Shown: positions 1 through 23,062 of the stretch, piece after piece
How positions within the stretch are numbered: the first letter of the stretch is position 1
How the letters are laid out: each line of letters opens with the position of its first letter
NCBI GenBank assembly: GCA_043805415.1
Contig: JAZDHZ010000007.1
Location: 93,786 to 157,785, forward strand
Direction of reading: 5' to 3'
Source: Candidatus Omnitrophota bacterium
GTDB taxonomy: Bacteria; Omnitrophota; Gorgyraeia; B26-G9
DNA length: 64,000 bases
Made by a program: the position numbers and the translations under genes
The notes under the pieces: model-generated
What the model was told of the DNA's origin: nothing
Seen by the model: only the letters and a program-made list of their open reading frames with translations
Database searches by the model: none

Positions 1-580
1 TTTCGATTCTTAAGGCCCGGCTGGAATTATTTTTCGGCGAGTTCTGAATTAACAACTGTCCGTGAAAAAGATTTTTAAAAACTATTCCCGCCAAGCCGCT
101 CTCTGGTTCCAGGCCGAATACTTTGGCTTTGGGATCAGCGAGAAAAACCCCCTGCCAGACATTATTCATCTCCGGGAAAACCCCTTTTTCCGCTTCACTG
201 AACCATTGCTCATAAGCATCCTTAAACATTATTCCGCTAAATGACTTTGTGATTGCTAATGGTTCTTTAACATCCAAATAAACCACCCAGCCAAAACCAT
301 TGTCAATTTTACTTATCTGCCAAAGCACTCTCAGCGGTAAATCCTCCCAATCAATGGTAATATGCAGAATATCTTGTTTTTCTTCCACCTGCCATATTCC
401 GCTGCTTGTATCATGCCAAGTCCCATTAATTAAAAAAGCCGTATGCAGGCCCAGATCATTGCTGCTCTTTGTTTTCTGATAATAAACCTGGATTTGTTTA
501 TCAGCAATAACCAGCCTGGACATGGAATTAACAAATTTATGTTTATTCAGCTTGGCGATAATTTTTTTTAATATCAGCAT
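1..580 (-). CDS. Partial CDS, C-terminally truncated by the window edge; stand-alone copy of the W-rich repeat domain found in the Wzt C-terminal extension
   Basis: Manual reverse-complement translation from ATG at 578-580 (GGAGA 7 nt upstream) gives an open frame to position 1 (MLILKKIIAKLNKHKFVNSMSRLVIADKQ...IWQVEEKQDILHITIDWEDLPLRVLWQISKIDNGFGWVVYLDVKEP...SFSGIMFKDAYEQWF...). It aligns by eye with NWQVIKTEKDFFLVQGQW...VFGFMFNDQYKHYL of the 5129..9184 protein. The ORF track missed it because no stop lies in the window; the 62..244 plus-strand ORF is antisense to it. Confidence 0.5.
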   Translation of the reverse strand, partial: MLILKKIIAKLNKHKFVNSMSRLVIADKQIQVYYQKTKSSNDLGLHTAFLINGTWHDTSSGIWQVEEKQDILHITIDWEDLPLRVLWQISKIDNGFGWVVYLDVKEPLAITKSFSGIMFKDAYEQWFSEAEKGVFPEMNNVWQGVFLADPKAKVFGLEPESGLAGIVFKNLFHGQLLIQNSPKNNSSRALRIE

Positions 581-600
581 AATAATTCTCCAACTTTTTC

Positions 601-720
601 AGTCAATAGCTAATAGTCAATGGCTTATAGTTAATAGTTATGAATTACAAGTTATTAGTTTCTAGCTCTTAGCCTGCGGCCGTTTAATTCTTACCATTAG
701 CTATGAGCTATAAGCTTTAC
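601..720. repeat. Intergenic TAGC/ATAG-rich repeat element, copy 1; contains AGTCAATAGCTAATAGTCAAT and TGAATTACAAGTTATT
   Basis: Core ATAGTCAATAGCTAATAG recurs at 34921..34938 (+) and as reverse complement at 37971..37993; sub-motif tgaattacaagttatt matches tgaattataagttatg at 34841..34856. Confidence 0.6.
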
Positions 721-721
721 T

Positions 722-1729
722 CTATTCGCTATCAAAATGACAACTAACCACTAAATGACAATTCCTCCGGCAATTATTTATCTGTTCAATATGCTTATCC
801 ATCTGTTCCGACAGACAAATCCGCTCCAGATTCTGCTTATTTTTTATATTATCGATTATTCCCAGCATCTGGCATTTTGACACATTTCCCGCAGGATCAA
901 TATTCAAAACATTGGCCTGAGCCAAATTACATCTATTGCTTTTAATAAAACTCACGGCATCAAAGAAATATTTTTTAAAAATTTTTAACTGGCCAATGCT
1001 GTCCGCGATTTTATAGCCCTGAGATTTAAACTCAATCAGCTGATTGATTATTCGCTCGATTTCCGGCTTATCGTTTGGCCAAAGGCTCTGATATTCATCA
1101 GACTGAAACCAATACTGATCAGCAGCTTCACTATAAGAAAAAGGCTGGGCTATGGCCTGAAAATTAATATACGCTAAGCGCTTGTCATTTTCCACCCACC
1201 GCGTCAGCTCAATTATATCCAAAAGATTAATCCCGCTGATCACAGTATTAATCCCGATACAAATATCCGGATTACTCTCAGCAATATTTTCAATTGCCTG
1301 TAGAACATGTTCCAATGCCCCGGGTTTGCCTCTGAGAAAATCATGAGTTTTTGGATTTAAACTATCCAGCGAAAAACAAATAAACTTTAAGCCAGAGGCA
1401 GCGATATTCGCTGCGATTTGTTTACTTACATAAAACCCATTGGAAATTAGCTGAATTTGAAGCCCTAAACCAATACCGTGTTTTATTAAATCAAATATAC
1501 CAGCGCGCAGTAAAGGTTCCCCCGGTCCGGAAAAATTAACAATACACTTACCGCGGTCCACAAATTCACTGATTTGCTCTAAAACATTCTTCCATTGTTC
1601 GATGGAAAGAATATTATCCGCGGTTAAAGGACTATCCTGCCAAAATTTGCACATCTGGCATTGAAAATTGCACTCATAGGCAATGCCCAAATCGCAATAT
1701 GTTAATTTTATATTATCTATTTTTTCCAT
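722..1729 (-). CDS. Radical SAM/SPASM-domain protein, subtype A (paralog of 2819..3841)
   Basis: N-terminal CNFQCQMC (CxxxCxxC); HDFLRGKPG motif; C-terminal CX13GX4C (CNLAQANVLNIDPAGNVSKC) and CRRNCHLVVSC Cys cluster typical of SPASM/twitch auxiliary Fe-S domains. Confidence 0.8.
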   Translation of the reverse strand: MEKIDNIKLTYCDLGIAYECNFQCQMCKFWQDSPLTADNILSIEQWKNVLEQISEFVDRGKCIVNFSGPGEPLLRAGIFDLIKHGIGLGLQIQLISNGFYVSKQIAANIAASGLKFICFSLDSLNPKTHDFLRGKPGALEHVLQAIENIAESNPDICIGINTVISGINLLDIIELTRWVENDKRLAYINFQAIAQPFSYSEAADQYWFQSDEYQSLWPNDKPEIERIINQLIEFKSQGYKIADSIGQLKIFKKYFFDAVSFIKSNRCNLAQANVLNIDPAGNVSKCQMLGIIDNIKNKQNLERICLSEQMDKHIEQINNCRRNCHLVVSCHFDSE

Positions 1730-1760
1730 TTTCTATTTTCTTTATGTTCTTGTGTCTTGT

Positions 1761-1780
1761 GGCCACGTCACGCCGTGGCC
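1761..1780. other. GC-rich hairpin ggccacg-tcacgc-cgtggcc, 24-43 nt downstream of the stop of the 1804..2838 gene
   Basis: Perfect 7-bp GC stem in an AT-rich spacer; related motif CACGTCAC..CGTGG at 13194..13211. No U-tract follows on the minus strand, so it is not a canonical terminator. Confidence 0.4.
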
Positions 1781-1803
1781 CTACTATTCGCTATACGCTG
1801 CTT

Positions 1804-2838
1804 TCAATCTTCTTCAAAAAAACAATTGATTAAAAAATGACAGTTTTTCTTACAAGCTTTTATATTCTGCCTGATTATTCCGGCTTTTTCCGAGTTCCAG
1901 ATTATATTTATATCCTCCATCAGACGGATATCTCCGATCGGCTCAAAAGCAAAACAATGATAAATCAGTCCGATGGAACTGATATGTATTGCTTTATCCA
2001 TATTACAGCTGGTTTTTTTCACAAAGCTATCTGGATCGGATAAATACTGTTTCATTGCCTTTAGCTGAGCAATACCGTTATTTATTTTATAGCCTTTAGC
2101 TTTTAATTCTATTAACTGATCAAACAATTCACTGACCCGCTGATTGTTTTTCGGCCATAAAAACCCGTATTTGCCCTTCCACCAGTGTTCTTCCGGCAAA
2201 GTATTATTCGGCTGCATCGGCACAGTCAAAGACACATCTTTGATTTTGGGATTATCATTTACCCATTGCACCAGCTCAATTATCCCAGAATAATTCTGTT
2301 CATAAATCACACTGATCAGGGCTATTTCAATATCCGGCGCGAAACAATGCAGATTATCAATCGCCCGCATCAGCTGCGCGTAAACTCCCTCCACTCCCCG
2401 CAAATAATCATGGGTCTGCCTGTCCATGCTATCCAATGATAGTTTTATAGTTTTTAAACCTGATGCTGCCAAACGTTCGGCAGTATTCTGATCAATTAAA
2501 TATCCATTGGAGACTAAATTTGTGCGCAGTCCGGCTTTATCCGCTGCCGCGATCAGAGCGTAAATATCTTTATGCAGCAAAGCCTCTCCTCCGCCGAAAT
2601 TCAGCACAAAATCCTTGCTCACTATTTTTTTTAACTGATTAAGTAAACTCGCATACTGGCTAAGCGTGGGGAAGCAATCAGCCGCGGTATTTTTAATAAA
2701 AATATCCGGCTGCCATTTATAGCACATCTTACATTTAAGCATGCACTGATCAGTAATCCCTAAAGAAGCGAATTCCGCTTTTTCGCTTATTCGCGCCTGT
2801 TTGATTTGTTCCGGGCTATTATTTAACATATTCTTCAC
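1804..2838 (-). CDS. Radical SAM/SPASM-domain protein, subtype B (paralog of 4085..5125)
   Basis: CMLKCKMC CxxxCxxC; SLDSMDRQTHDYLRG motif; C-terminal CKKNCHFLINC cluster; shares KGYKINN and SCNMDKAIHISS blocks with the 4085..5125 protein. Confidence 0.8.
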   Translation of the reverse strand: MKNMLNNSPEQIKQARISEKAEFASLGITDQCMLKCKMCYKWQPDIFIKNTAADCFPTLSQYASLLNQLKKIVSKDFVLNFGGGEALLHKDIYALIAAADKAGLRTNLVSNGYLIDQNTAERLAASGLKTIKLSLDSMDRQTHDYLRGVEGVYAQLMRAIDNLHCFAPDIEIALISVIYEQNYSGIIELVQWVNDNPKIKDVSLTVPMQPNNTLPEEHWWKGKYGFLWPKNNQRVSELFDQLIELKAKGYKINNGIAQLKAMKQYLSDPDSFVKKTSCNMDKAIHISSIGLIYHCFAFEPIGDIRLMEDINIIWNSEKAGIIRQNIKACKKNCHFLINCFFEED

Positions 2839-3841
2839 TTTCGTTAAAGTTGCAGTTAACCAATGACTGACAGTTTTTTCGGCACAATTTTATCTCAGCG
2901 CGCGCCTGTTCTGCGCTCTGACTAAACCAGAGCTCACTGATCCTATTGCTTTTTATATTTCCGATTGCCTGTTTATCAAAGCATATATGCACGTCTCCGG
3001 TAGGCGTAATATTCAGTGCCCGCAGATCAAGATGACAATGATTTTGCTTTATAAAATCATTGGGCTGGGAAAAATATTTACTGAATACGGCAAACTGATC
3101 TTCCGGGTTTTCCAGCACAAAATCCGCGCGCAAATCAGAGCTGTTTTTAAGTTTTGCCAATTGGCACATTGTCTGCCGCACACAATCCTGATCATTGGGC
3201 CATAAAAAAGCGTATTCTGGTTTTTCATACCATTTATCATCAAACTCAGTATTGAACGGCTGGGTAATCGCCTGATAGCCTATGCCGTGAATGCGTTTAT
3301 CTTTATTGGCCCAAAGCGCGACTTCCACCGCGTCTTTGATATTATAACCGGATATTGTGGTTGTAATATCAATAATTATCCGCGGCGCGTATTTAGCCAG
3401 GCTTGCTATAGCCGCCGCAACTTTGTCAAAACTGCCGGGCTTACCGCGGAGAAAATCATGCGTCTTGGGATTAGCTGAATCCAGAGATATGGTTATCTGG
3501 TTTAATCCGGCTTTGGCTAAATCCTCAGCCATCAGGTCATCGAGCAGATAAGCATTTGTTGCCAGCAAAGTCTCAAAACCCTGTTCACGCGCCCAGCTGA
3601 TCAGTTCAATGGTTTCTTTTCTCAGCAAAGGCTCGCCTCCGGCAAAATTAATCCGCGGTTTTTTGGCCAGGCACATCTGCCCCAGATCAGTTATAAACGC
3701 TTTCCACTGGGTAATTGAAGGCTCCCGCGGATCTCTATATTCCACGGAATTATGCCATTTAAAGCACATCTTACAGCGCATAAAACAGCTCTCAAGTAAA
3801 GCAATACAGCAATATGTCGGTAATTTTTTGTTTTCATTCAT
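2819..3841 (-). CDS. Radical SAM/SPASM-domain protein, subtype A (paralog of 722..1729)
   Basis: CFMRCKMC CxxxCxxC; SLDSANPKTHDFLRGKPG; C-terminal CRKNCQSLVNC; its 3' end overlaps the start of the 1804..2838 gene by 20 nt. Confidence 0.8.
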   Translation of the reverse strand: MNENKKLPTYCCIALLESCFMRCKMCFKWHNSVEYRDPREPSITQWKAFITDLGQMCLAKKPRINFAGGEPLLRKETIELISWAREQGFETLLATNAYLLDDLMAEDLAKAGLNQITISLDSANPKTHDFLRGKPGSFDKVAAAIASLAKYAPRIIIDITTTISGYNIKDAVEVALWANKDKRIHGIGYQAITQPFNTEFDDKWYEKPEYAFLWPNDQDCVRQTMCQLAKLKNSSDLRADFVLENPEDQFAVFSKYFSQPNDFIKQNHCHLDLRALNITPTGDVHICFDKQAIGNIKSNRISELWFSQSAEQARAEIKLCRKNCQSLVNCNFNESEEYVK

Positions 3842-4084
3842 GGAACTTTGTATCCTTGCAACTAGCTTATTCCTCGGTCTAGAATCAATTATTTCTGCTC
3901 ATTCTCGCCTTACATCCTGTAAGGCTCCGAGGATAAATCTCTGATTTTGCCAGTCCTAACAAAATCAGGCTTTAAACCCGCAAAATAATTATTCTAGCCC
4001 TTTTTACTTTATCCTTTTTACTTTTTACTTCCATCTGTGTTCATCGATATTTTTTATTAGTGTTTATCACAAAAGCTTCTGCTT
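3842..4084 (-). promoter_or_regulatory. 243-bp structured spacer between two radical-SAM genes inside the operon
   Basis: Nested inverted repeats: cctcgg...[gccttaca tcc tgtaaggc]...ccgagg at ~3871..3925, and tgattttg-N10-caaaatca at ~3944..3969; no ORF of 60 aa or more. Confidence 0.35.
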
Positions 4085-5125
4085 TTACTTTTCAAATTTA
4101 CAGTTAAGCAGGAAATGACAATTTTCCCGGCAATTATTAATTTCTTTTCGCACTAAATCCGCTTTTACGCTCTGCCACATTTCCCGCACTGATTTTTCCC
4201 GCACATCTCCCAAGCATTGATGGCGGTAACACATAAACATATCTCCTACAGAGCTGATATGAATCGCGTGATCAATATTACAGCTGCTCTGCTTCACATA
4301 GGTATCAGGATCAAGCAAATAGGTTTTAAACGCCTGGATATGCTCAATGGGATTACTAATCTTATAGCCTTTTGTTTTCAGCTGAATAAGCTGATCTAAA
4401 ACCGCTTCCGCCTGTTTATAATCCTTAGGCCATAGTTCATTAAACGCCGGGTCTTTCCACCACTGGGTTTGAAGTTCCGTATTATTTGGCTGCATCAGCA
4501 CCATCAGATAAATCATATTGATTTTATTATTTTCCTGAACCCAGTTAACCAGATCAACCATTCCGCCCAGCGTGGGCTGCATAATAATCGAGCAAATACT
4601 GATCTGGATATTAGGCGCGTACGCGTGCACCAGATCAATCGCGTTCATAACCTTATCATAAACCCCGTCAACTCCGCGCAAATAATCATGGGTTTTTCTA
4701 TTAAGACTGTCCAAAGAAATATTGATATAATCAAGCCCGCTGTCGCGCATCTTCTCAACCATTGGTTTATCCACAATGAAGGCATTGGTGGCAATATTGG
4801 TTTTAAACCCCAGTTCATGACAGAACTTAACCAGATCAAACAGCCATGGCACTGTAGTGATTTCTCCTCCCCCGAAATTAATAATAAAATCATTGGGCGC
4901 GATTTTACGCAAAGAAAGAGCGCTCTGTTTCCAGTCGTCAAGCCCCAGCTGTCTGCGATCATCTTTAATGTAAATATCCTGTTTCCACTTTTGACACATT
5001 CTGCAGCCCAGCATGCAATCATCGCAAATACTAAAGCAGCAAAATGTCAGTTTCGGGATCTGGCTGATATTTTCCTTTCTATTAGTAATATTATTCATTA
5101 TTAATCTCCGTAATTGTTTTAACAT
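4085..5125 (-). CDS. Radical SAM/SPASM-domain protein, subtype B (paralog of 1804..2838)
   Basis: CMLGCRMC CxxxCxxC; SLDSLNRKTHDYLRG; C-terminal CRENCHFLLNC; 3-nt gap to the upstream Wzt-like gene, so co-operonic. Confidence 0.8.
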   Translation of the reverse strand: MLKQLRRLIMNNITNRKENISQIPKLTFCCFSICDDCMLGCRMCQKWKQDIYIKDDRRQLGLDDWKQSALSLRKIAPNDFIINFGGGEITTVPWLFDLVKFCHELGFKTNIATNAFIVDKPMVEKMRDSGLDYINISLDSLNRKTHDYLRGVDGVYDKVMNAIDLVHAYAPNIQISICSIIMQPTLGGMVDLVNWVQENNKINMIYLMVLMQPNNTELQTQWWKDPAFNELWPKDYKQAEAVLDQLIQLKTKGYKISNPIEHIQAFKTYLLDPDTYVKQSSCNIDHAIHISSVGDMFMCYRHQCLGDVREKSVREMWQSVKADLVRKEINNCRENCHFLLNCKFEK

Positions 5126-5128
5126 TAA

Positions 5129-8100
5129 TCATTCCTTATCCTTATTAACTTTAATCTTTATCTTAAATTCAATTTTCTTATCCTGAACAGTAATATTTTT
5201 AGTTTTGCTTAATATTACCCGGCTATTATGATTCTCATCCGTATCTTTAATAATATTATCCCAATCAACACTGCACCAAGCTTCCCAGCTAATTTCCGGC
5301 AATTTACTGTTTTCCGCGAAAACTTTCATCTTATTCTTAGACTCAGCGACCTGACGCCAAACATCCGGATTGCTCCGCGGCGCGAACATCCCGAATTTCC
5401 GGGGATGTTCAGATACCTGCCAATTAACAAATTCTTTGTTCAGCATTATTCCCACGGCTATATCTTCAATCAGCGCAGGATCCAACTCGAAATAAATCCG
5501 CCATAATATTTCATTATCATCACCGTATTCAATTTCCTGAGTATGAGCGATTAAACAGTCTGCTTTGAATTTCAGCCGGATCATATCAGCGGTTTTATCA
5601 AGCTGTAATAATAACTGGGATGAATCAAACCAGTAATCTTTTGTTTTCATGGCTGTATACAGGCATAAGCCGTTAGTCAGCTCTTTGCGGTCATAGAACA
5701 ATCTTATTCTAGCCTGATCCAAGACAAGTTTAATTCTGCCTTTGTTCAGTTCCTTTAGCGGCAAAGTTTTTTTCTGAACACAATTATGGTTAAAATCATT
5801 AATTTTTTTCTCTTCCGAAGAAAGCAGAATATTTGCTTTAAATATTTCATGCTTACCGGGTTCAAGAACAAATGCCTGTTCCGCGAGCAAACGTTTAACT
5901 CCCAAAACAATAATCTCTTTGTTCGCTGGCTTAAATATCTGCAGCAGCCATTGCCCCATATCAGCTAAAGGAGCAAAAGCAATTTCCGCTGACTGTTCCG
6001 CGGCTAAATCAGTTTGTTTTAAAACAATATACCGGCTGCGGTTGTCGATAAGGTCTATGGCTTGAAATCCCTGGTCATGATCATTTAAAGCGATTACTCC
6101 CTTACCTAGTTCGCTCAGCCAATGCCGAAAAACTTTGGGTAAAAACATATTTATTGTCAGCGCGTATATTGCTGTTTGTTCTAAAACTTCCAGTTCCACG
6201 ATCCAGGAAATATATCCCGCTTTTTCCTGTAAATACCAGTTCTGGACAAGGAGGGGATTATTATATGTAATTTTAATAAAAAGCGTATGCGGATCCTGTT
6301 TTTTAATCTGCCAGTGCCCCTGGAAAGAATCAAATTCATCATAAGCGCTGACGATTACTGCCAAACCGCAGTCAGCGCTGATCAGCTTATTTTGATAATA
6401 AAGTTCTGTTTTTTGCTGCTTGGCTGTTAATCGGCAAGTCTCTGAACAAACTATAGAAAAATCTTGTTCGCAGTATTCATCTATTCCCTTTTGCCAGGAT
6501 TCCGGATCAACGATATCAAGTTCGGCGCTAAAAACCGGCTTCTGATCGTTTAATTCTCCGGGGTTTAATTTAGCCTGAAACTGCAGGTTCCTTGAACGAT
6601 TTGAATACTGCAGCAAGGGAGTATAAGCAAACTCGCTTAAACTATTATGCTTAAACAGCACGGCGCAGCCGGCATCATCAGTACAGGCTCCCAGCAAACA
6701 GCTGTTTAATTCTGTAAGGTCAATAAGCTTGATTTCCTGCGCGTCATTGCTGAACCTATTTTTTTCATACGCATTAATCCACTGCCGGAATCGCGGATTT
6801 AGTATGATTCCCACTTTATATTCAAAAGCATCATTTAATTCAAGCGGGTCTAAATATACATTCCAAATAAGGCTATGCTGTTTTAATTCAATCCGCCAAG
6901 ACTCTTTTACCTTGGGAAATTTTCTCTGAATGCTTACCAGCAGATAATTATCTTTTTTTTCAATTTTTTTGGCCACACCATGCGATTCATACCAGCGCTT
7001 ATTTAAAAATATTCCGCTGCTAAACCCGGCTAAAGCCGCCGTAATCTCGGTCTGTCCGAAAAATAAACGAATCCTGTCTTGGCCGCAATCAATACGCAGC
7101 GAGTCATTGCCCAGGAGATTAGCGGAATTAAATTTATCTCTTTGCTTGGCAATAAACCGCTGTTTTTCCTCAGACTGTTCAATAACCATCATTCGGCAAT
7201 TAATTGACGCGCTGTCCTGACTGCTGATCCGAATCCGCCGGGTACTTAGTTCCTGGCGGCAATTATACAGATCAATCCGGGCATTATCATCCGCCTCGGC
7301 AATAAAATGCTTATCCTGCCGCGCCTTACTGCTTAAGCCGACAAACCCGCATTTATTATGTTTTAAAATAACCTTTTCGTCAAACTCAATCGCGGGTAGA
7401 AAATCATTTTCCTGAGTTAATTCAAAATACGAATCATAATCATCAGTCAGATCAGCGTCGATCCAGATTAAGCTCTGGCTCTGTTCTAGGCTTTGCCCAT
7501 TTTTCAGCGACATTTTAAGCAATAATTCCTTGCCGGTTAAAATTAAATTTAATCTTACCTGAATCTGTTGCGTAAAAAATTCAGAATCAACCGCGAATTC
7601 CGCCTCACTGATCTTTGTGATTTTCCATTTTCCCTCAAATATATTATAAACATGATTTTGCTGTTTAAATCCGCAAACCAGTCCAAAGCCTTTGCTTATT
7701 TGTTCTGTTCCGTTAAAAAGCTGAAAACTTTTTTCTTCCAGCTTAAGCGTTAAACTATCTTTGCTGATGCGGATTTTTTCCTGCTGCTGCCTGAGCTTTT
7801 GTTCCAGCTGTTTTTTATCCAGCAGCTGAATCAGGGTTTTACATACCGCGCTTTGTTTCTGGTCTAAGAAAACATGCGTTTGGATAATATTTGCCGCGAA
7901 ACCTTCCTGGCGCTGGATCAAACCAAAACCGCGCTGCTGGTCGATATTAAAATTCGCCCAGACCGCGGGGATATCCGAATCAGCCGCGGACAATACCAGT
8001 AAAGCCTCCTTCTGGTCAGTACGATACAAATCCTGGCATTGCTCAGTGGTAAAATTTTCCGCGGCCCGCATAGGTTTTATTTTATCCGCGTCCAGATAAT

Positions 8101-9184
8101 GTTTATATTGATCATTAAACATAAAGCCGAAAACCGCTCTTTCCGCTTTTTGATCAGCCGTCAGGTTAATACTGCCGATACATTCAAATTCTCGCTCATT
8201 CTCCAGTTTAACCTGGATTTGCGCGCTTATCCGATTAGCCCATTGCCCCTGGACAAGAAAAAAATCTTTTTCGGTTTTAATTACCTGCCAATTCGCCTCC
8301 CAGGACATCAGCCATTTATCCCAGAGTTTTAAGCTTAAATACCCGCCAAAATCAGCGGTTATCGGTTTTCCGTCCCAAAGCAAGACAAGCCTTCCGCTAT
8401 TAAAAATAATGCTCAGTTTTTCCTGGTCAATGCAGGCAATAGCCTGTTTCTGCCCCACTGCCTGGACATAGCGGATAATTGATTTATGGATTGAGTCATC
8501 TTTTACTATCTGTCCGGTTTTCAGCAAAATACCCCGGGTGGCAATCCGGCTTAAAGAATCCAGATCATGGGAAACAATTACCACGGTCGCACCTTGTTTG
8601 TTCATTTCCATTATTCGCTTTAAACACTTAGCCTGAAACTCGGCATCGCCCACAGCCAGACTGTCATCAATCAGGAAAATATCCGGATTTACATGCACAG
8701 CCACGGAAAAGCCTAAACGCACGAGCATGCCCTGGGAATAAGTTTTTACCTGAGAGTCAATGAACTCATTTAGCCCGGAAAATTCAACGATTTCAGCAAA
8801 CAGGGCGTGAGTCTGTTTTTTACTCAAACCATAAAGCGCGGCATCAAGATAGATATTTTCTCTTCCGGTTAATTCCGGATGAAATCCCGCGCCTAAATCA
8901 AGCAGTCCCGCTACTTTGCCTTTAACATATATTTGCCCGCTGGAGGGCACCGTGATTTGGCTGATAATCCTCAGAATTGTTGTTTTGCCTGAAGCGTTTT
9001 CTCCGATAATCCCCAGAATCTCGCCTTTTTGCACTGAGAAACTAATATCTTTTAATGCCAAGACCTCGCGCTTGTTCCGGGCTTTTTTAAAAAAAGACAG
9101 AAAATTGCTGACTAAGAATTGTTTCCCTGAATTAAAACAATACTTTTTGCTGATGTTTTTCAGTTCAATAACTTTTTCTGACAT
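5129..9184 (-). CDS. Wzt/TagH/KpsT-type polysaccharide ABC-exporter ATPase (N-terminal ~250 aa) fused to a ~1100-aa C-terminal extension of repeated W-rich domains (1351 aa total)
   Basis: Walker A GENASGKTT; family block KGKVAGLLDLGAGFHPELTGRENIYL; YSQGM signature (Wzt-type YSxGM, not LSGGQ); Walker B FLIDDSLAVGD. The extension carries recurring W-x-(I/V) blocks (WQVIKTEKDFF, WKITKISEAEF, WRIELKQHSLIW, WQIKKQDPHTLF). Confidence 0.8.
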   Translation of the reverse strand: MSEKVIELKNISKKYCFNSGKQFLVSNFLSFFKKARNKREVLALKDISFSVQKGEILGIIGENASGKTTILRIISQITVPSSGQIYVKGKVAGLLDLGAGFHPELTGRENIYLDAALYGLSKKQTHALFAEIVEFSGLNEFIDSQVKTYSQGMLVRLGFSVAVHVNPDIFLIDDSLAVGDAEFQAKCLKRIMEMNKQGATVVIVSHDLDSLSRIATRGILLKTGQIVKDDSIHKSIIRYVQAVGQKQAIACIDQEKLSIIFNSGRLVLLWDGKPITADFGGYLSLKLWDKWLMSWEANWQVIKTEKDFFLVQGQWANRISAQIQVKLENEREFECIGSINLTADQKAERAVFGFMFNDQYKHYLDADKIKPMRAAENFTTEQCQDLYRTDQKEALLVLSAADSDIPAVWANFNIDQQRGFGLIQRQEGFAANIIQTHVFLDQKQSAVCKTLIQLLDKKQLEQKLRQQQEKIRISKDSLTLKLEEKSFQLFNGTEQISKGFGLVCGFKQQNHVYNIFEGKWKITKISEAEFAVDSEFFTQQIQVRLNLILTGKELLLKMSLKNGQSLEQSQSLIWIDADLTDDYDSYFELTQENDFLPAIEFDEKVILKHNKCGFVGLSSKARQDKHFIAEADDNARIDLYNCRQELSTRRIRISSQDSASINCRMMVIEQSEEKQRFIAKQRDKFNSANLLGNDSLRIDCGQDRIRLFFGQTEITAALAGFSSGIFLNKRWYESHGVAKKIEKKDNYLLVSIQRKFPKVKESWRIELKQHSLIWNVYLDPLELNDAFEYKVGIILNPRFRQWINAYEKNRFSNDAQEIKLIDLTELNSCLLGACTDDAGCAVLFKHNSLSEFAYTPLLQYSNRSRNLQFQAKLNPGELNDQKPVFSAELDIVDPESWQKGIDEYCEQDFSIVCSETCRLTAKQQKTELYYQNKLISADCGLAVIVSAYDEFDSFQGHWQIKKQDPHTLFIKITYNNPLLVQNWYLQEKAGYISWIVELEVLEQTAIYALTINMFLPKVFRHWLSELGKGVIALNDHDQGFQAIDLIDNRSRYIVLKQTDLAAEQSAEIAFAPLADMGQWLLQIFKPANKEIIVLGVKRLLAEQAFVLEPGKHEIFKANILLSSEEKKINDFNHNCVQKKTLPLKELNKGRIKLVLDQARIRLFYDRKELTNGLCLYTAMKTKDYWFDSSQLLLQLDKTADMIRLKFKADCLIAHTQEIEYGDDNEILWRIYFELDPALIEDIAVGIMLNKEFVNWQVSEHPRKFGMFAPRSNPDVWRQVAESKNKMKVFAENSKLPEISWEAWCSVDWDNIIKDTDENHNSRVILSKTKNITVQDKKIEFKIKIKVNKDKE

Positions 9185-9208
9185 TATTTTTTCCTTAACC
9201 TGCTCATT

Positions 9209-9988
9209 TTAAGTAAAATCAGCGAAAAATTTCTTATTATTCCTAAATAAAACAATGCCCAATATCCCAAAGCCAAGGCTTATGCCCAGCATCCAGCCAA
9301 GGGCAAAAAAACCGGGAACTTTAGCATAAAGCAAAATATCCCGGTAAGCGTTTATATACAAGCTCAAGGGATTAAGGTAAAAAAATCCTCGGATATTTTC
9401 CGGAACCAAAGACAAAGGATAAAAAATCGGAGTAGCATAAAACCATACCAGCATAATCAGCTCAATAATATATTTCACATCCCGGTAAAAAGTATGCAAA
9501 GCCGCCACAGACAGGCAAAGCCCAACAATAAATACAGTCTGAAGAATGATTATCAGCGGCAGATAAACCCACGGCCAGCTGGGGAAAATTCTAAAATAAG
9601 CTAAAAACGCGAATAGGAGAAACTGGGAAATAAGAAAATTAAACAGATTCGCGCAAACAACGGAAAGCGGAATCACTTCATAAGGAAAATAAGCTTTTTT
9701 AATCAGACTGGCATTATCGACTATTGAAGTCGCGGCCGCGGTTAAAGAAAAATTCAGAAAAAACCAGGGCAAAAGCGCGCTCAGAAGAAATACCGGATAA
9801 TTGGCAATCTGGATCTTCATAATAAAAGTAAACACCAGGCTGAAAACCAGCATTAAAAGCAAAGGATTGAGCAAAGACCATAGCCAGCCTAAGACCGCTG
9901 ACTTATACTTTATTTTTATTTCTTTTTTAGTCAGGCTGATAATCAAATTGCGGTAAGCATAAATGCTTTTTATATAAGCGTAACTCAT
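9209..9988 (-). CDS. ABC-2 type (Wzm/TagG-like) polysaccharide exporter permease
   Basis: 259 aa, about 6 hydrophobic helices; sits directly upstream of the Wzt-like ATPase; start overlaps the stop of the 9985..11277 gene. Confidence 0.75.
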   Translation of the reverse strand: MSYAYIKSIYAYRNLIISLTKKEIKIKYKSAVLGWLWSLLNPLLLMLVFSLVFTFIMKIQIANYPVFLLSALLPWFFLNFSLTAAATSIVDNASLIKKAYFPYEVIPLSVVCANLFNFLISQFLLFAFLAYFRIFPSWPWVYLPLIIILQTVFIVGLCLSVAALHTFYRDVKYIIELIMLVWFYATPIFYPLSLVPENIRGFFYLNPLSLYINAYRDILLYAKVPGFFALGWMLGISLGFGILGIVLFRNNKKFFADFT

Positions 9989-11277
9989 AGTTTATTTATC
10001 TCCTGAGCAATAACCTTTCCATCAATAATCACATCTTCCATTGACATGTATTTCCATTGCCCAAACCGTCCCACGGGAAAGATATTATTCGCTTTTAAAA
10101 AATCATTCAGCGCCTGCATGCTCAGACGATAATTATGATCATATACAACATAGGCATATTTAATATTATGCGCGTGGGAAACTAAAATAAGATCATCCTT
10201 GGTTAAAATCCCAGCGCTGATCAAATCATTTTGGATTATTTTATTTATATCTTTTTTGGGCAAAGGTTTATTTTCGGAATATGATACTTCCGCGTATAAA
10301 GAACTTTTATTCGCGGGAGCAACATTCTGCGAAAAATTCATCGGAAACCCCAGCCGAAAAAAAACAAACTTATCTTCCGGATAATAAATCCAGTGTTTAT
10401 CACTTATCCGCGGCCGGTCAATGCCCAGATTAAGATTATATATTGAGATATATCTAAGCTGGGAAAACGCGGTTTTTACTTTTTCCGGCATCTTATTAAC
10501 AATTAGTTTCTTTAATTCAATCATCGGCAAAGAACAAATAAGCTGCGTAAACTTTTCGGTTCGGCCATTATTAAATTTTACTGTTTTCTGCTCGAGATCT
10601 ATTGCCTGCGTCTCATGTTCAGTATATATGTTTTTGACCTGGTTAGCAAAAGCTTTTGCCAGCTGATCAATTCCCCCGGTTTGCGGATACCAGAATTCAC
10701 TATTATAACCCAAGGCTTTGGTTTTTAAAGTAAATGCTCCATCCAGGACTGTTTTTATTTTTACCTGAGGAACATAATTCACTGTCCAATCAGCTATAAG
10801 CTCTTGCGGCGGCACAGTCCAAAATTTATAGTTATAGGGATACATGAAATATTTTGTTATCCCCTTGCCAAACCTATCTAACATCCACTCGTAAAGATTT
10901 TGCTGGTCATTATCTTTTGTTTTCAATGAGGCTTTGAGCATTCCGAGAATGCATTTTTTTACTATTTGCAAAGGCAAGCCAAAAGTATTTGCCTGAAAAG
11001 GATATTTCGTATAGATATCATGAGAGTAAATCCAGGCATTACGCTTATGGCTAGATAATAAATCCGGCAAAAGTTTATTAATTAATTGTTTAACATAATT
11101 GGTTTTAAAATGCAGAAGATGCCCATCATAATCAAAAATAAAACCATTCACCAAATCAGTGCGGGCAAGACCGCCGACCTGGTCTTCTTTTTCAAATATC
11201 TTAACTTCATCCTGAATATGAAAAGCAGTGCTTAATCCAGCAAGCCCAGCACCTAAAATTATAATTTTCTTACTCAT
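9985..11277 (-). CDS. FAD-dependent oxidoreductase, UDP-galactopyranose mutase (Glf)-like
   Basis: N-terminal dinucleotide fold IIILGAGLAGLSTAFHI; VGGLARTD...YDGHLLHF and PFQANTF blocks resemble Glf IGGNAYTE...YGAHIFHT...PFNMNTF; ATGA overlap with the WecA-like gene. Confidence 0.55.
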   Translation of the reverse strand: MSKKIIILGAGLAGLSTAFHIQDEVKIFEKEDQVGGLARTDLVNGFIFDYDGHLLHFKTNYVKQLINKLLPDLLSSHKRNAWIYSHDIYTKYPFQANTFGLPLQIVKKCILGMLKASLKTKDNDQQNLYEWMLDRFGKGITKYFMYPYNYKFWTVPPQELIADWTVNYVPQVKIKTVLDGAFTLKTKALGYNSEFWYPQTGGIDQLAKAFANQVKNIYTEHETQAIDLEQKTVKFNNGRTEKFTQLICSLPMIELKKLIVNKMPEKVKTAFSQLRYISIYNLNLGIDRPRISDKHWIYYPEDKFVFFRLGFPMNFSQNVAPANKSSLYAEVSYSENKPLPKKDINKIIQNDLISAGILTKDDLILVSHAHNIKYAYVVYDHNYRLSMQALNDFLKANNIFPVGRFGQWKYMSMEDVIIDGKVIAQEINKL

Positions 11278-12290
11278 TCATTTATTTCCAATCGGCTTAA
11301 TTTCATTCCGACTAAACACATAATGCTAATAACCAATAAAAACATAAATAAACCCAAAGTATTTGAACCGAGAAAAATCACTAATGCGCAGCAATTAGTG
11401 ATAATCGCCAGGATGATCATTATCCGCAATATCGATCCCTTGGAAATTCCGATTTTAAGCATTCTGAATACAAAATGATCATTACTTTTCATAAAAATAG
11501 ATTTTTTTTGCCTAAACCGCACAAAAATAACAAAAAGCATATCAAAAAGCGGTAAAGCCAGGATTACTAGAGGGATAACCAAACCGATTTCATGACCTGT
11601 GGGCGCGAAACTTAATGATATTGCCATTACTGCCAGGGAAAACCCCAAAAACTGACTGCCCGCATCACCCATAAATATCCGCGCCGGAGGCAGATTATAT
11701 TTTAAAAAAGCAATTAAAACCGCACACTGAAGTCCGGCGATAAGGATAACAAAATGATTGTTTGTTAAAACCGCAAAAATCAAAAAAACAATCGTACTGA
11801 TTAAAGCCACGCCCCCAGCCAGCCCATCAAGTATATCCAGCAGATTAAACGCGTTAATCAATAAAATAATCCAGAAAAAACTCAAAACTATATTAAAAAA
11901 AGTGTTCAGATAAACAATCTCTGTTCGCATCACAAAACCAATTAGCAGCATTGCCCCGAGGAATTGCCCTGCCAGTTTTTCCCTGGGATTCATTTCTTTA
12001 ATATCATCATAAAAGCCAAGCAATGTGATAATCGCGGCTGCCAGCATAAACATACAGAATCCAAATAAGTCAATCGAGAAACAAGGAAAGCGGACAAACG
12101 CGAAACCAAGAATTAAAAACACACTGAACATGCCGATTCCGCCAAGATAAGGAACCTGTCTTGGATCTATTTTTTGCGGAGCAGGACCAGTAACAAAACC
12201 CTTAGCTTTCGCGAATTTTTCCAACAAGGGCAATAAAAAATAGCATAAGCCAAAAGCACTGATAAATAATAAACCAATAGTACTGGACAT
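11274..12290 (-). CDS. Glycosyltransferase family 4 polyprenyl-phosphate sugar-1-phosphate transferase (WecA/MraY family)
   Basis: Polytopic membrane protein carrying the family signature NAFNLLDILDGLAGG and the DD-containing FYDDIKE motif; first gene of the operon. Confidence 0.75.
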   Translation of the reverse strand: MSSTIGLLFISAFGLCYFLLPLLEKFAKAKGFVTGPAPQKIDPRQVPYLGGIGMFSVFLILGFAFVRFPCFSIDLFGFCMFMLAAAIITLLGFYDDIKEMNPREKLAGQFLGAMLLIGFVMRTEIVYLNTFFNIVLSFFWIILLINAFNLLDILDGLAGGVALISTIVFLIFAVLTNNHFVILIAGLQCAVLIAFLKYNLPPARIFMGDAGSQFLGFSLAVMAISLSFAPTGHEIGLVIPLVILALPLFDMLFVIFVRFRQKKSIFMKSNDHFVFRMLKIGISKGSILRIMIILAIITNCCALVIFLGSNTLGLFMFLLVISIMCLVGMKLSRLEINE

Positions 12291-12625: not shown

Positions 12626-13009
12626 TTATGACGACAGCTCTAATCCTTCGAGAAAATCATCAACAATTTTTTTATTCTGGTCATTTTTCCACCAGGAAAA
12701 GCTTATCCCTGATCTATATTTATCAGCATCCTGGTAAGTCCATTCCACTTTGCCGAAAACTCTTATTGGGCTAATAGTTTCATTTAGTAAAATATCTATA
12801 CTTAGACGTGTGCCAACAGCCATTGTTTCTTTTGAATAAATTCCTGCGCCGAAAAGAGTAAAATCCCGCAAAAAGCATTCTGTTCCGTTCCAATAGCGAA
12901 ACCATGCCTGCGGATCTAAGGGCCTAACCTGTACAGCTGATTTATCAGCTAATTTTCTTATATTCGCTCTCTGTTCCTTTGCGATAATATCCATATTTTT
13001 TTGCTCCAA
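12626..13009 (-). CDS. Small stand-alone PilZ-domain protein (putative c-di-GMP receptor)
   Basis: RANIRK (RxxxR) and DFTLFG (DxSxxG-like) motifs; paralog of the 37540..37899 protein (RPLDPQ.WFR.WN...VFGKVEW...G.SFSWWK shared). Confidence 0.6.
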   Translation of the reverse strand: MEQKNMDIIAKEQRANIRKLADKSAVQVRPLDPQAWFRYWNGTECFLRDFTLFGAGIYSKETMAVGTRLSIDILLNETISPIRVFGKVEWTYQDADKYRSGISFSWWKNDQNKKIVDDFLEGLELSS

Positions 13010-13193
13010 TTCAGCTTATTTCAGATTAATAGTTTCTTTAATTTATTTGCTCTTATTTAATCTATTTTTCAAACCCGCAGAGAATAAATCAAAACTATTT
13101 CCCATAGTTTTATAAAGCCTTTTTAAATATTTCATAAGTTTACACTAATGTTTAATTTTTTGCAAATTATTTTTTAAAAATGACAACCATTTT

Positions 13194-13211
13194 CACGTCA
13201 CCGCGTCGTGG
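13194..13211. other. GC-rich hairpin-like motif cacgtcaccgcgtcgtgg, ~50-70 nt downstream of the pilin-like gene stop
   Basis: Shares CACGTCAC..CGTGG with the 1761..1780 hairpin; the stem is shorter here. Confidence 0.3.
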
Positions 13212-13262
13212 AACGGTTGCAGCCAAATGGATGAATTAAGTATTGTGTCCCTTTATTTACCT

Positions 13263-13937
13263 TTATTTAGGCAGGGAAATTGTAGCAGTATAGTCATTTT
13301 TGTAAAATTCAGGGTTTGTTGTTTGTGTGCCCATGCCCATTTCTATGGTAATCAATACTTCTATCTTGCTCGGCGCTCCGTCAGTTCGTGAATCCCAGTC
13401 AATGAATGGAGCTCCGGAGCTGTCAAAAAAAGTAAATTGTAAATCAGTGATATTTTCGGAAAATGGATCGCTTGATCCAGTATTAAAATTAAAATCAAAA
13501 CCAACCGGATCTAAGGTTTTTCTACCGTCAGTAACATAAAATCTTTCTAATACATCATCATTTAATTCCGCGGTTCCCTGCCCATCCAGCCAGAATCCAA
13601 CTTCACATAAATCGGATTTATCAGCTTCATTTGGATTTAAAGCAGCAATAAAATAAAGTTCATCGCCAATGCTATCTGTTCTCCATCCGCTGGGAGTGGT
13701 TTTATCAAATCCTAAACAATAAAAATTATTACCTTCTCTAATCACCGCGCTGGAAATCTCTCGAGTCATTCGATCTAAAACAACCCGCGCGATAGTCGTA
13801 GATTTTAAAATATTATCCGCCTTTTTCCAAGCACGCAAAGAAACATTAAAAACCGAATACAAAATCGCTATCAGTAAAGCAAGAATTCCGATAGAAACTA
13901 AAAGCTCAATCAGGGTAAATCCTTTTTTTAAAACCAT
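13263..13937 (-). CDS. Type IV pilin / pseudopilin-like protein (prepilin N-terminal cleavage/methylation domain)
   Basis: N-terminus KKGFTLIELLVSIGILALLIAILYSVF: class III signal with G-1, F+1, E+5 and a hydrophobic helix; start codon overlaps the stop of the upstream 767-aa gene. Confidence 0.7.
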   Translation of the reverse strand: MVLKKGFTLIELLVSIGILALLIAILYSVFNVSLRAWKKADNILKSTTIARVVLDRMTREISSAVIREGNNFYCLGFDKTTPSGWRTDSIGDELYFIAALNPNEADKSDLCEVGFWLDGQGTAELNDDVLERFYVTDGRKTLDPVGFDFNFNTGSSDPFSENITDLQFTFFDSSGAPFIDWDSRTDGAPSKIEVLITIEMGMGTQTTNPEFYKNDYTATISLPK

Positions 13938-16240: not shown

Positions 16241-16278
16241 CCGTCCTTGGCTAAACTACACTATTCATAGTTAATTTC

Positions 16279-18231: not shown

Positions 18232-18285
18232 ATAATATCGGGTATCAGTTGATTTAGGGTTTCAGGTTAAATGACTTAAGGTTTA

Positions 18286-20109: not shown

Positions 20110-20149
20110 GCGCGATCACTTCCTTTGGTTTTGTCTGATTATTTTTACT

Positions 20150-21439
20150 TTATTTTTTGCCTGTTTCTTTGTCCTGTTCAGGTTCTTTATCCTGATATTC
20201 TTTATTCCAAAGCTTACGCAAAACATAATAAGCTTTCCTTGGGTTTCTTTTATTTAAACCATTGGCATCAAGCTCAGGATCTAAGCCCACAATCCCGAAC
20301 CATTCTTCATTCATATTCTTGTCCGCTTTAGCGTCAAAATCATATGAACCCATGCCCCAAGCAGCGACATTATCATGAACCCACCAGCTGTTTCGATCGC
20401 TTTCCGAGCTTTTCCACCATTCATCATTCCATTCAAATACAACTCCGCCCAGACAATTACCCACTCCCTCGCCGCCATCCATGTTGTTTTGAATGTCAAG
20501 CCATTGACTTTTCAAAAATTTTGCCTGGTTTTTCTGATCTTCTTGTTTTTTCACCATATTATAGGCGTCACAGCCAAACTCGGTTAAAATAACCGGCCGG
20601 TCAAACTTACGTTTTACTTCTTTAAAAAAGTTGCCAAATACCTTACCGCGATAGACAATACATCCAAGCAAATCAATATCCGGACAATTTTCCGCTGCTA
20701 TTTTCAGACCAACAGTCTCACCATTGCCTAAAGAGACCAGATGGATAGGATCAATTTCCTTTATTTTTTTAGCCAGTTCATTAACAAAGGAATAATATAT
20801 TTTAGCCCGCGCGTCTCTTTTTTTGCCAAAACTATCCATTGCGTCGATTTCATCGCTTGACCAGGGATTTATTCTGCCGTCAAAACTATAATTATTTTCA
20901 TTGCCTAAATTCCAGATTAGTATTCCAGGGGTATCTTTAAAATATTCTACTGTATTTAAGACTTTCTCCGTGATTTCTTTTCTAAACTCCGGATCAGCAT
21001 AATTAGCAGGAGGATAATCCCAAAAACCAAGCGTATAGCCTAAAATAGTCCGAATCCCGTATATCTTATATAAGTCCTCAATCATTGTCCGACAAAATTC
21101 CAGCTCATCTCCGCTATGATAGAGTCTGATCGTATTCACACCCATTTCTTTCATTAATTTTCCATCAACTAACCAGGGTCGCTTCGGGTCGCAGACAAAA
21201 TTATATAAAATTCCCTGCTGACCTATGGGCACTGGGGAATAACAAACCCCTTTTACAATAAACGGTTTTTTATCAACAATCAGCTGATAGTTATATTTTT
21301 GTTCATCTTCTCTGCTTTGTTTTTTAATTTTTATTTTCTTAATATAAACCTTACCCTTAGGCTCTTGTTTTAACAGACTGCATCCTGTGATTAATAAAAA
21401 AATTAATAATAACGTAATTTTACGAATTTCCATATTCAT
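20150..21439 (-). CDS. Lipoprotein glycoside hydrolase, clan GH-A TIM-barrel (GH5/GH72-like catalytic motifs)
   Basis: Lipobox LLITGC; WNLGNENNY (acid/base NE motif) and ILTEFGCDAYN (nucleophile TE/SE-x-GC motif as in GH72); paralog of the 23063..24955 C-terminal domain. Confidence 0.55.
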   Translation of the reverse strand: MNMEIRKITLLLIFLLITGCSLLKQEPKGKVYIKKIKIKKQSREDEQKYNYQLIVDKKPFIVKGVCYSPVPIGQQGILYNFVCDPKRPWLVDGKLMKEMGVNTIRLYHSGDELEFCRTMIEDLYKIYGIRTILGYTLGFWDYPPANYADPEFRKEITEKVLNTVEYFKDTPGILIWNLGNENNYSFDGRINPWSSDEIDAMDSFGKKRDARAKIYYSFVNELAKKIKEIDPIHLVSLGNGETVGLKIAAENCPDIDLLGCIVYRGKVFGNFFKEVKRKFDRPVILTEFGCDAYNMVKKQEDQKNQAKFLKSQWLDIQNNMDGGEGVGNCLGGVVFEWNDEWWKSSESDRNSWWVHDNVAAWGMGSYDFDAKADKNMNEEWFGIVGLDPELDANGLNKRNPRKAYYVLRKLWNKEYQDKEPEQDKETGKK

Positions 21440-21550
21440 ATTAAAAAAACCTTTCCCCTGATTTTAAAATTATTACCCAATACATCTCTTCACTCTTGCT
21501 TTGAAAAATCACCCATCTAAGCTAAATTACAATCTCATATAGCAAATAAG

Positions 21551-21585
21551 GGTAGGAACTAGAATCAGGCCCCTACCCTTACTTG
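21551..21585 (-). terminator. Candidate stem-loop (taagggtagg-N15-cctaccctta) just downstream of the 21608 stop
   Basis: 10-bp perfect stem; the minus-strand downstream sequence is only moderately U-rich. Confidence 0.3.
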
Positions 21586-21607
21586 TTGATATTTATCAAT
21601 CTAATAA

Positions 21608-22297: not shown

Positions 22298-22395
22298 TTT
22301 TGCGGCGTCAAGTCAACCAGCTCGAATTTAGTCCGAAATGTCTGCGGCCTAGCAGGCACTTTCGGAATCATTATTAATTCTAAGCCATTAAACTA

Positions 22396-23022: not shown

Positions 23023-23062
23023 TTTTATCTTTTTCCTTAATTTGCCTGATTGCTAAACAATC

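Follow-up and report, generated by a model that had tools for sequence, protein, structure and literature searches.

An Omnitrophota Wzt-type ATPase with five copies of an undescribed domain that recurs on radical SAM enzymes

What is understood of ABC transporter-dependent glycan export comes from a small number of proteobacterial and Aquifex models, where a single Wzt jelly-roll checks the finished chain. In ABC transporter-dependent O-antigen pathways, WbdD and WbbB have coiled coils that are molecular rulers. The mycobacterial GT-C arabinosyltransferases EmbC and AftD carry appended, beta-rich carbohydrate-binding modules that are thought to hold the polymer. The carbohydrate-binding domain (CBD) of Wzt is a strand-swapped jelly-roll (PMC9445017), and carbohydrate-binding modules are reported not to have been found otherwise in terminator enzymes (PMC11231755).

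The locus described here occupies positions 1 to 12,290 of a 64,000-nt stretch of DNA (the window) from an uncultured Candidatus Omnitrophota bacterium. It resembles the WzmWzt O-antigen transporters of Aquifex aeolicus (7k2t/8dku), E. coli O9a, and Raoultella/Klebsiella O12 in the family of its nucleotide-binding domain (NBD; best PDB relatives, Aquifex aeolicus Wzt 6amx and 8dku, E = 3e-58, aa 13-234 only), in its adjacent Wzm gene, in the placement of an accessory module directly after the NBD hinge, and in an operon that includes a WecA-type initiator and glycosyltransferases; by analogy, the logic is likely to be the same, with the finished polymer being captured by the accessory domain for export (PMC9445017; PMC11231755). 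In place of one strand-swapped jelly-roll of ~150 aa, however, the ATPase carries five predicted supersandwiches of ~215 aa that have no sequence or fold kinship with it, the same domain is also present on tailoring enzymes, and the catalytic Glu is replaced by Asp. The NBD is also like those of the teichoic acid exporters TagGH/TarGH (TarH, 6jbh, E = 1e-47; TagH, E = 1e-45), but TarH and TagH are without a supersandwich array, and no polyol-phosphate genes accompany the Wzm-type and glycan genes of the operon here. TagH models were the top NCBIfam matches to the ATPase, with scores well below the equivalog cutoffs for TagH (183 versus 538 bits) and for galactan Wzt/RfbE (159.6 versus 320 and 153 versus 400); it is a member of the broad family and none of those named equivalogs.

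The transporter gene and its neighbors

The ORF at 5129..9184 (minus strand) encodes a protein of 1351 aa, which the initial annotation had described as a Wzt-type ATPase (aa ~1-250) with an exceptional multirepeat C-terminal extension. This description is borne out by a Pfam ABC_tran match at aa 44-175 (3.7e-18), by the Wzt relatives in the PDB, and by the presence of five repeats. The motifs that had been named, GENASGKTT (aa 61; Walker A), ELTGRENIYL (aa 104), and YSQGM (aa 149; signature), were all found, together with Walker B (IFLIDD) and the H-loop (VSHD). The position of the catalytic Glu is occupied by Asp174, which in the alignment to Aquifex Wzt coincides with the mutated position E167Q of 6m96, and the degree of ATPase activity is questionable because of this Asp.

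The surrounding genes (Table 1) include that of a Wzm-type permease, which stops 24 nt before the ATPase gene begins and is conserved in syntenic loci L004 to L007 and L010. The FAD enzyme, syntenic in the same five loci, is most like eukaryote-type UDP-galactopyranose mutases and, judged by these relatives, probably makes a furanose sugar nucleotide. The GT4 transferase, the gene for which is found at the same position in L001, L004, and L005, is likely to be the initiating enzyme of a lipid-linked glycan. On the other side of the ATPase gene lie four small radical SAM (rSAM) genes; the best solved relative of paralogue b is the sugar-nucleoside rSAM enzyme BlsE (7vob, E = 1.6e-12). Scanning the window for Rfam families and tRNA genes gave no match.

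Table 1. Features of the locus, with window coordinates
Feature	Position	Strand	Basis
N-terminal part (193 aa, first repeat) of edge-cut gene	1..580	-	Open to window edge; BLAST; orthologues
Small radical SAM enzyme, paralogue d	722..1729	-	Pfam Radical_SAM 7e-19; syntenic
Small radical SAM/SPASM enzyme, paralogue c	1804..2838	-	Pfam Radical_SAM 3e-17, weak SPASM; syntenic
Small radical SAM/SPASM enzyme, paralogue b	2819..3841	-	Pfam Radical_SAM 1e-21, SPASM 2e-7
Small radical SAM/SPASM enzyme, paralogue a	4085..5125	-	Pfam Radical_SAM 4e-18, SPASM 2e-5; syntenic
Repeat 5 (aa 1146-1351), C-terminal copy	5132..5749	-	hhalign R3-R5 probability 95%; BLAST, alignments
Repeat 4 (aa 910-1145)	5750..6457	-	hhalign R3-R4 probability 92%; BLAST, alignments
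Repeat 3 (aa 689-909)	6458..7120	-	Modelled copy
Repeat 2 (aa 462-688)	7121..7801	-	hhalign R2-R4 probability 90%; alignments
Repeat 1 (aa 241-461)	7802..8464	-	hhalign R1-R5 probability 81%; alignments
Nucleotide-binding domain, Wzt/TagH type (aa 1-245)	8450..9184	-	Pfam, NCBIfam, PDB search, alignment to Aquifex Wzt
Wzm-type ABC-2 permease, partner of ATPase	9209..9988	-	Pfam ABC2_membrane 1.3e-16; NCBIfam galactan Wzm and KpsM, below cutoff
FAD enzyme, UDP-galactopyranose mutase-like	9985..11277	-	Pfam Amino_oxidase, NAD_binding_8; PDB 4dsg E 2.6e-43, aa 2-411
Polyprenyl-phosphate sugar-1-phosphate transferase (GT4, WecA/MraY family)	11274..12290	-	Pfam Glycos_transf_4 6e-35; NCBIfam WecA 3e-26, below curated cutoff

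Five diverged repeats and their predicted fold

Segment BLAST, MAFFT alignment, and pairwise hhalign resolved ATPase residues 241-1351 into five in-register, diverged repeats (R1 to R5) of ~215 aa each, starting near aa 241, 462, 689, 910, and 1146, where four or five W-rich repeats of ~200 aa had been anticipated; tryptophan enrichment applies to four of them (2.1 to 3.4% Trp) but not to R2 (0.9%). Each repeat was separately significant against the independent 1183-aa protein of locus L001, with E values of 9e-6, 2e-4, 2e-14, 3e-9, and 6e-11 for R1 to R5, respectively.

Across 365 copies of the domain, Trp/Tyr and also Gln, Asn, Asp, and Arg are abundant among the 19 best-conserved positions, as is typical of sugar-binding sites. 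Repeats fused to rSAM enzymes keep 17 to 18 of these positions, whereas the transporter repeats keep 6 to 11, and because so few are kept, a conserved binding site may have been lost in most Wzt repeats. R2 is the most degenerate (6/19, with only two Trp) and R5 is the window repeat nearest to the family consensus (11/19), while R1 is the best kept among orthologues yet is far from the consensus (8/19). In every ATPase repeat-number class, it is the last repeat that on average lies nearest to the consensus.

A model of R3 has 18 strands and a C-terminal linker helix in the form of a galactose-mutarotase-like supersandwich of ~200 aa, and on the superfamily fold test, the repeat is likewise predicted to be a beta-supersandwich of this type. 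Most of the close structural matches are carbohydrate-enzyme domains, and the supersandwich matches, with only 5 to 13% identity, include GH38 2wyh, GH94 8ho7/2cqs, GH97, GH2 domain 5, and the aldose 1-epimerases 3nre/3mwx. Known supersandwich domains adjoin a glycosidase catalytic domain, whereas here they form tandem arrays on an ABC ATPase, radical SAM enzymes, and glycosyltransferases. The fold is common in glycoside hydrolases, glycan phosphorylases, and lyases; nonsugar roles, such as that of YidC P1, also occur. When the complete tail (aa 241-1351) was modelled with AF2 from five orthologues, the pLDDT was 50.8 and the pTM 0.33, with only R2 and R5 being moderately confident. On sequence grounds, the repeat is an undescribed and uncurated domain family with no Pfam or NCBIfam model, and our literature searches found no supersandwich or mutarotase-like domain reported on polysaccharide ABC transporters.

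Syntenic loci and the distribution of the domain

The ORF at 1..580 had been taken for a homologous, stand-alone copy of the repeat. The homology is sound, with BLAST matches to R5 (2e-10), R3 (3e-10), and R4 (3e-9), although the pair that was originally quoted, this ORF and R1, is weak alone (E = 0.79); the stand-alone status is not, since the gene is cut by the window edge and its orthologues are long. Residues 1-193 of the ORF align with residues 1-193 of a 1183-aa protein in L005 with 72.5% identity, and the ORF matches the N termini of proteins of 1182 to 1217 aa in eight syntenic loci; in the ninth, L007, the protein is encoded in two pieces (330 + 856 aa). Full-length orthologues (~1183 aa) consist of three repeats followed by Radical_SAM and SPASM domains. 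A stand-alone repeat protein was rejected as an artefact of the window edge, given that the orthologues in nine syntenic Omnitrophota loci continue into rSAM/SPASM.

Gene content beyond this end of the window is read from the orthologous loci, where the gene next to that of the ~1183-aa rSAM protein encodes, in order, a B12-rSAM domain, a repeat, an rSAM/SPASM unit, and a second repeat. The domain would thus be carried by three proteins of one operon in 5+3+2 copies, the last two figures being judged by those loci. Ten GTDB species loci have the operon layout of FAD mutase, Wzm, NBD with four to five repeats, one to six (mostly four to six) small rSAM enzymes, three to four repeats with rSAM/SPASM, the B12-rSAM and rSAM/SPASM protein with its two repeats, a B12-rSAM enzyme, and a GT1, followed by a GT2 in L005, L007, and L008. 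Each operon holds eight to nine rSAM domains, some of them B12 dependent.

The family as a whole comprises 585 representative clusters at 50% identity, with 2 to 8 or more copies of the repeat. Among the top 150, ATPases with two, three, four, and five repeats number 17, 38, 13, and 16, respectively, and longer ones are also present. Outside these loci, every fusion partner is a glycan enzyme or an rSAM: GT-C PMT_2 proteins in which 9 to 13 hydrophobic segments are followed by two to three repeats (P0023, P0092, P0100, and P0116), a GT-B with a repeat and rSAM (P0143), and an NBD with five repeats and rSAM (P0009). The GT-C fusions are like EmbC and AftD in that soluble modules follow a membrane GT-C part, but the modules of those enzymes belong to another fold and family, and they have no module in common with an exporter. 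In independent loci (L015, L017, L018, and L019), the neighbors of repeat-bearing genes again include glycosyltransferases and several genes of the rSAM/SPASM or B12-rSAM type, and each of the five additional loci with repeats that were examined is a glycan cluster rich in rSAM genes. The tie to radical SAM genes suspected in the initial annotation is recurrent, and it extends to the presence of the same domain on the neighboring rSAM enzymes.

Proposed polymer tethering and its alternatives

Our best explanation, to which as a whole we assign a probability of roughly 0.55, is that a polyprenol-linked glycan is exported by a Wzm/Wzt-type ABC transporter, with the 1351-aa protein as its ATPase subunit, and that the repeat domain is a polymer-tethering module common to the exporter and its tailoring enzymes, five copies of which replace the usual single CBD. 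Through their repeats, the transporter and the radical SAM enzymes would each hold the nascent lipid-linked glycan at the cytoplasmic face, so that one captured chain would undergo both modification and export; the internal degenerate repeats may be mainly spacers for the better-conserved C-terminal copy. We suggest that the glycan is the ligand of the repeats and that its modification is coupled to export; the domain probably ties the two processes together because the neighboring radical SAM enzymes carry it as well. In functional terms, the repeats would be an analogue of the Wzt CBD, albeit a nonhomologous one. What they recognize may be the radical SAM-made modification, as the initial annotation suggested, or else the polymer as such or partner proteins. 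The genetic context consists of the WecA-like transferase, the UDP-galactopyranose mutase-like enzyme, and GT1 and GT2 enzymes (the last two from orthologous loci), and a lipid or peptide substrate was rejected in view of these genes and of the glycosyltransferase fusion partners. A bolder version, which we think unlikely, holds that the arrays are unrecognized polymer-reading or docking modules that couple the rSAM battery to the Wzm/Wzt exporter, with repeat number serving as a ruler or counter and a radical-tailored surface glycan as the product.

The Wzt repeats might dock the repeats of the rSAM enzymes and not a glycan, forming a protein-protein scaffold for a modification-export complex at the membrane, a possibility that is suggested by the presence of the domain in three separate proteins from a single operon, by the wide range of copy numbers, by the loss from the Wzt repeats of most family-conserved polar and aromatic positions, and by the nonsugar roles of the fold. 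Docking of this kind is possible but doubtful: the usual GT-C topology implies that in the GT-C fusions the domain is probably periplasmic and so separated from partners in the cytoplasm, and the preponderance of carbohydrate-enzyme domains among the close structural matches also counts against it. The tail may otherwise be a rigid arm in which repeat number sets the distance from the membrane channel to a single functional terminal domain, and with it polymer length. It would then resemble the WbdD and WbbB coiled coils as a structural part of variable length, within an ABC-dependent glycan pathway, by which a distance could be set; the difference is that it is built of beta domains and belongs to the transporter, whereas the coiled coil belongs to the terminator. 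The discrete series of ATPase repeat numbers, the proximity of the final repeat to the consensus, and the linker helix predicted to end each repeat are compatible with such an arm, but the low-confidence model of the whole tail gives no domain arrangement or rigidity, and the repeat that is best kept among orthologues is R1, not R5, so we regard a ruler as quite unlikely.

Two further readings appear very improbable to us. The repeats had been compared with the C-terminal domain of Wzt, and tandem canonical CBDs, each reading a chain-terminating cap, would have the same placement C-terminal to a Wzt NBD. The comparison fails, however, at the level of both sequence and predicted fold, and homology was rejected: Pfam Wzt_C found no match in the whole ATPase at E <= 0.01 or in a set of 26 repeats searched at E <= 10, the repeat profile had no match at E <= 10 among PDB sequences (Wzt CBDs included), Aquifex Wzt could be aligned over the NBD only, and an 18-strand supersandwich of ~200 aa is predicted, not the ~150-aa jelly-roll beta-sandwich of Wzt_C, which dimerizes by exchanging C-terminal strands and binds the polymer's terminal cap. 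The repeats might instead be active mutarotase-, epimerase-, or glycosidase-like enzymes working on the polymer, but no repeat matched an Aldose_epim or GH family of Pfam at E <= 10, or any NCBIfam model, and the window repeats vary at the majority of the conserved polar positions. Neither His nor Glu, the catalytic residues of aldose 1-epimerases, is among the 19 best-conserved positions of the 365 copies, and a catalytic mutarotase was rejected for want of these conserved residues.

The system described here departs from the model systems in three ways. The jelly-roll is replaced by a domain from a large family that has no curated model, in arrays of two to five or more copies; the module is also found in tailoring enzymes, which suggests that modification and export are physically coupled in a way not seen in the model systems; and the unusual density of radical SAM and B12-radical SAM enzymes in these glycan clusters suggests sugar-polymer chemistry that is yet to be explored, in a phylum about which little is known. 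In practical terms, the repeat offers databases a definable new domain family and provides testable constructs for binding and structural work. On the bolder and less likely version, the product would be a heavily radical-tailored surface glycan, e.g., one that is C-methylated or cross-linked, and would be characteristic of Omnitrophota.

The transporter ATPase and its repeated tail

The Wzt-type ATPase is the 1351-aa product of a single long gene, and the motifs quoted for it in the initial annotation are all present (GENASGKTT at aa 61, ELTGRENIYL at aa 104, and YSQGM at aa 149). A Pfam scan returned ABC_tran (aa 44 to 175) as the sole match and no domain in the remaining ~1100 residues, and the top NCBIfam matches, TagH and galactan Wzt models, all fell far under their curated cutoffs. 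The closest solved structures are those of Wzt, the ATPase of the O-antigen transporter of Aquifex aeolicus (6amx and 8dku; E 3e-58), with TarH and TagH the next best; as an ABC ATPase, the protein is, judged by its sequence, a member of the Wzt/TagH family. The Aquifex alignment ends at residue 234, and the carbohydrate-binding domain (CBD) of that protein is therefore unaligned with the tail. At aa 174, the Asp that follows the Walker B Asp replaces the catalytic Glu (IFLIDDSLAVGD); the corresponding residue in Aquifex Wzt is E167, which is mutated in 6m96, and the ATPase domains (NBDs) of the repeat-bearing family carry DD in 65 of 80 cases and DE in 15. This substitution may result in slow or regulated ATP hydrolysis.

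The tail had been described as four or five W-rich repeats of ~200 aa, and this is borne out, with the number settled as five by concordant evidence. BLAST of segments against the whole protein placed five in-register units at approximately aa 241, 462, 689, 910, and 1146, spaced 221 to 236 aa apart; each of these repeats (R1 to R5) was significant against an independent 1183-aa protein from locus L001 (E 9e-6, 2e-4, 2e-14, 3e-9, and 6e-11, respectively); profile-profile probabilities, from five orthologue sets, were 92 to 96% among R3, R4, R5, and the independent repeat, 90% for R2-R4, and 81% for R1-R5, with a constant register throughout; and the same units recur in five orthologous proteins of 1344 to 1352 aa (49 to 54% identity). 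Trp content is 2.1 to 3.4% in four repeats and 0.9% in R2. The predicted structure of the whole tail was poor (pLDDT 50.8) and gives no five-domain arrangement.

The glycan operon and its surroundings

Every gene of the glycan operon lies on the minus strand, overlapping its neighbor or separated by a short gap. The FAD protein is amine-oxidase-like by Pfam but nearest to eukaryote-type UDP-galactopyranose mutases (Trypanosoma cruzi 4dsg, E 2.6e-43; Aspergillus 3uka, 5e-39), a likeness suggesting that the polymer may contain a furanose sugar. BlsE, to which the small radical SAM paralogues are closest, is a sugar-nucleoside enzyme.

Features of the window and of the syntenic loci
Feature	Position	Strand	Remark
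Operon gene 1, WecA-like GT4 phosphotransferase		-	
Operon gene 2, FAD enzyme	9985-11277	-	closest to UDP-galactopyranose mutases
Operon gene 3, Wzm (ABC-2 permease)		-	
Operon gene 4, Wzt with five repeats	5129..9184	-	
Asp at aa 174 of Wzt	8663-8665	-	
Operon genes 5-8, four paralogous small radical SAM/SPASM enzymes		-	best solved relative BlsE
Operon gene 9, repeat-radical SAM fusion	starts at 580	-	cut by window edge
First further gene, syntenic loci			~1400 aa; B12-radical SAM + repeat + radical SAM/SPASM + repeat
Second further gene, syntenic loci			~550 aa; B12-radical SAM
Third further gene, syntenic loci			GT1
Region between glycan operon and giant gene	12626-26525	-	two PilZ-domain proteins, pseudopilin with N-terminal methylation motif, TPR/PKD protein, two GH2-like TIM-barrel proteins, MFS sugar transporter
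Large ORF	26830-31098	-	1422 aa
Large ORF	31140-34715	-	1191 aa
Giant ORF	38025-63998	-	8657 aa

The ORF at the window edge had been taken for a stand-alone repeat. Its homology to the tail stood (E 2e-10 to R5, 3e-10 to R3, and 3e-9 to R4; the pair originally quoted, with R1, gives E 0.79 taken alone), but its stand-alone status did not. The frame runs open to window position 1, and the gene at the same position in another Omnitrophota MAG encodes 1183 aa, with repeats at aa 16 to 235, 236 to 457, and 458 to 685 followed by Radical_SAM and SPASM. The fragment matches this orthologue residue 1 on residue 1 (72.5% identity) and likewise the N-termini of 1182- to 1217-aa proteins in seven further loci; by synteny, it is the start of a repeat-radical SAM fusion. 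In one locus (L007, 10834-14418), the counterpart gene is split into ORFs of 330 and 856 aa, which reflects either an assembly frameshift or a real two-repeat protein that stands free.

Using the fusion protein as the query, we obtained ten species-level genomes, nine labelled Candidatus Omnitrophota and one "Planctomycetia"; all keep the window gene order, continue with three more genes, and in three cases add a GT2 after the GT1. By this gene content, an operon has about ten copies of the domain, spread over three proteins, together with eight to nine radical SAM domains.

Pfam recognized three features in the giant ORF, an M23 peptidase (aa 1227 to 1340), a LysM domain, and part of a Helicase_C domain, all within its first half; the final 4257 aa gave no match. 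The ORF is consistent with the giant proteins reported in Omnitrophota (bioRxiv 10.64898/2026.06.07.730766). That preprint describes pilus/secretion and GH2 genes around giant-protein genes, and the corresponding part of the gene mix at 12626-26525 matches those surroundings. A six-frame HMM scan found the supersandwich repeat absent from the other two large ORFs.

Distribution and conservation of the repeat domain

The domain lies outside every Pfam and NCBIfam model, and the literature searched contains no account of it on a polysaccharide exporter. A profile run against 1.84 billion representatives recovered 585 proteins at E<=1e-3 (481 at E<=1e-10), nearly all of those with a named source being from Omnitrophota and one from Hydrogenedentota. 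Among the best 150 of the 585, ATPases combine the NBD with two (17), three (38), four (13), or five (16) repeats; longer repeat-bearing proteins extend to 2244 aa, and two ATPases, P0041 (2244 aa) and P0086 (1825 aa), have arrays longer than that of the window protein. The first ORF of L013 (JAMWCB010000040.1), whose start is lost at the contig start, has at least 1891 aa and eight repeats. Repeats are also fused to radical SAM/SPASM (P0015, P0074, and P0101), to an NBD, with five copies, and radical SAM/SPASM in one chain (P0009), as a single copy, to GT-B and radical SAM (P0143), and, as two to three C-terminal copies, to GT-C PMT_2 membrane transferases (P0023, P0092, P0100, and P0116).

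In four independent loci (NBD with three repeats in two, NBD with two in one, and GT-C with two in one), the repeat gene invariably lies beside radical SAM/SPASM or B12-radical SAM genes and glycosyltransferases, and some of these neighboring enzymes also bear the domain. In L015/L016 (15116-19534), a 1472-aa protein with three successive Radical_SAM+SPASM units adjoins an ATPase with three repeats, a fusion that supports the small radical SAM paralogues acting together.

The best-conserved positions over 365 copies are T27, G31, W42, S45, W50, Q73, W75, W86, Y111, W114, G121, F123, W132, P155, N173, D175, R181, and Q184, with no His or Glu among them. Repeats of the radical SAM fusions keep 17 to 18 of 19 key positions, whereas those of the window Wzt keep 6 to 11, the C-terminal R5 keeping the most; averaged within each architecture class, the last repeat comes closest to the canonical pattern. 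R1, which adjoins the NBD, is the most conserved repeat among orthologues.

A putative tethering module

The proposal that the tail consists of Wzt-type C-terminal carbohydrate-binding modules is contradicted by both sequence and fold: the region did not match the Wzt CBD family, and it resembled the galactose-mutarotase-like superfamily in fold only. A 2024 paper from the field states that other terminator enzymes had not been found to carry CBMs (PMC11231755). A reading as catalytic mutarotase-like domains is likewise contradicted, since conserved catalytic residues are missing. The degenerate Wzt repeats would suit a protein-protein scaffold whose domains dock the enzymes onto the transporter, and the series of two, three, four, and five repeats among the ATPases would suit a spacer or ruler in which a single terminal copy is functional.

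The best-supported reading, we infer, is a substrate-tethering module common to the exporter and the tailoring enzymes, because the domain has a predicted sugar-enzyme fold, its fusion partners are exclusively glycan enzymes or radical SAM proteins, its gene context is that of glycan synthesis, and its conserved positions are aromatic and polar. Such a module would take hold of the lipid-linked glycan on the cytoplasmic side and couple its radical SAM modification to export, a role analogous to that of the Wzt CBD in a domain of unrelated descent.
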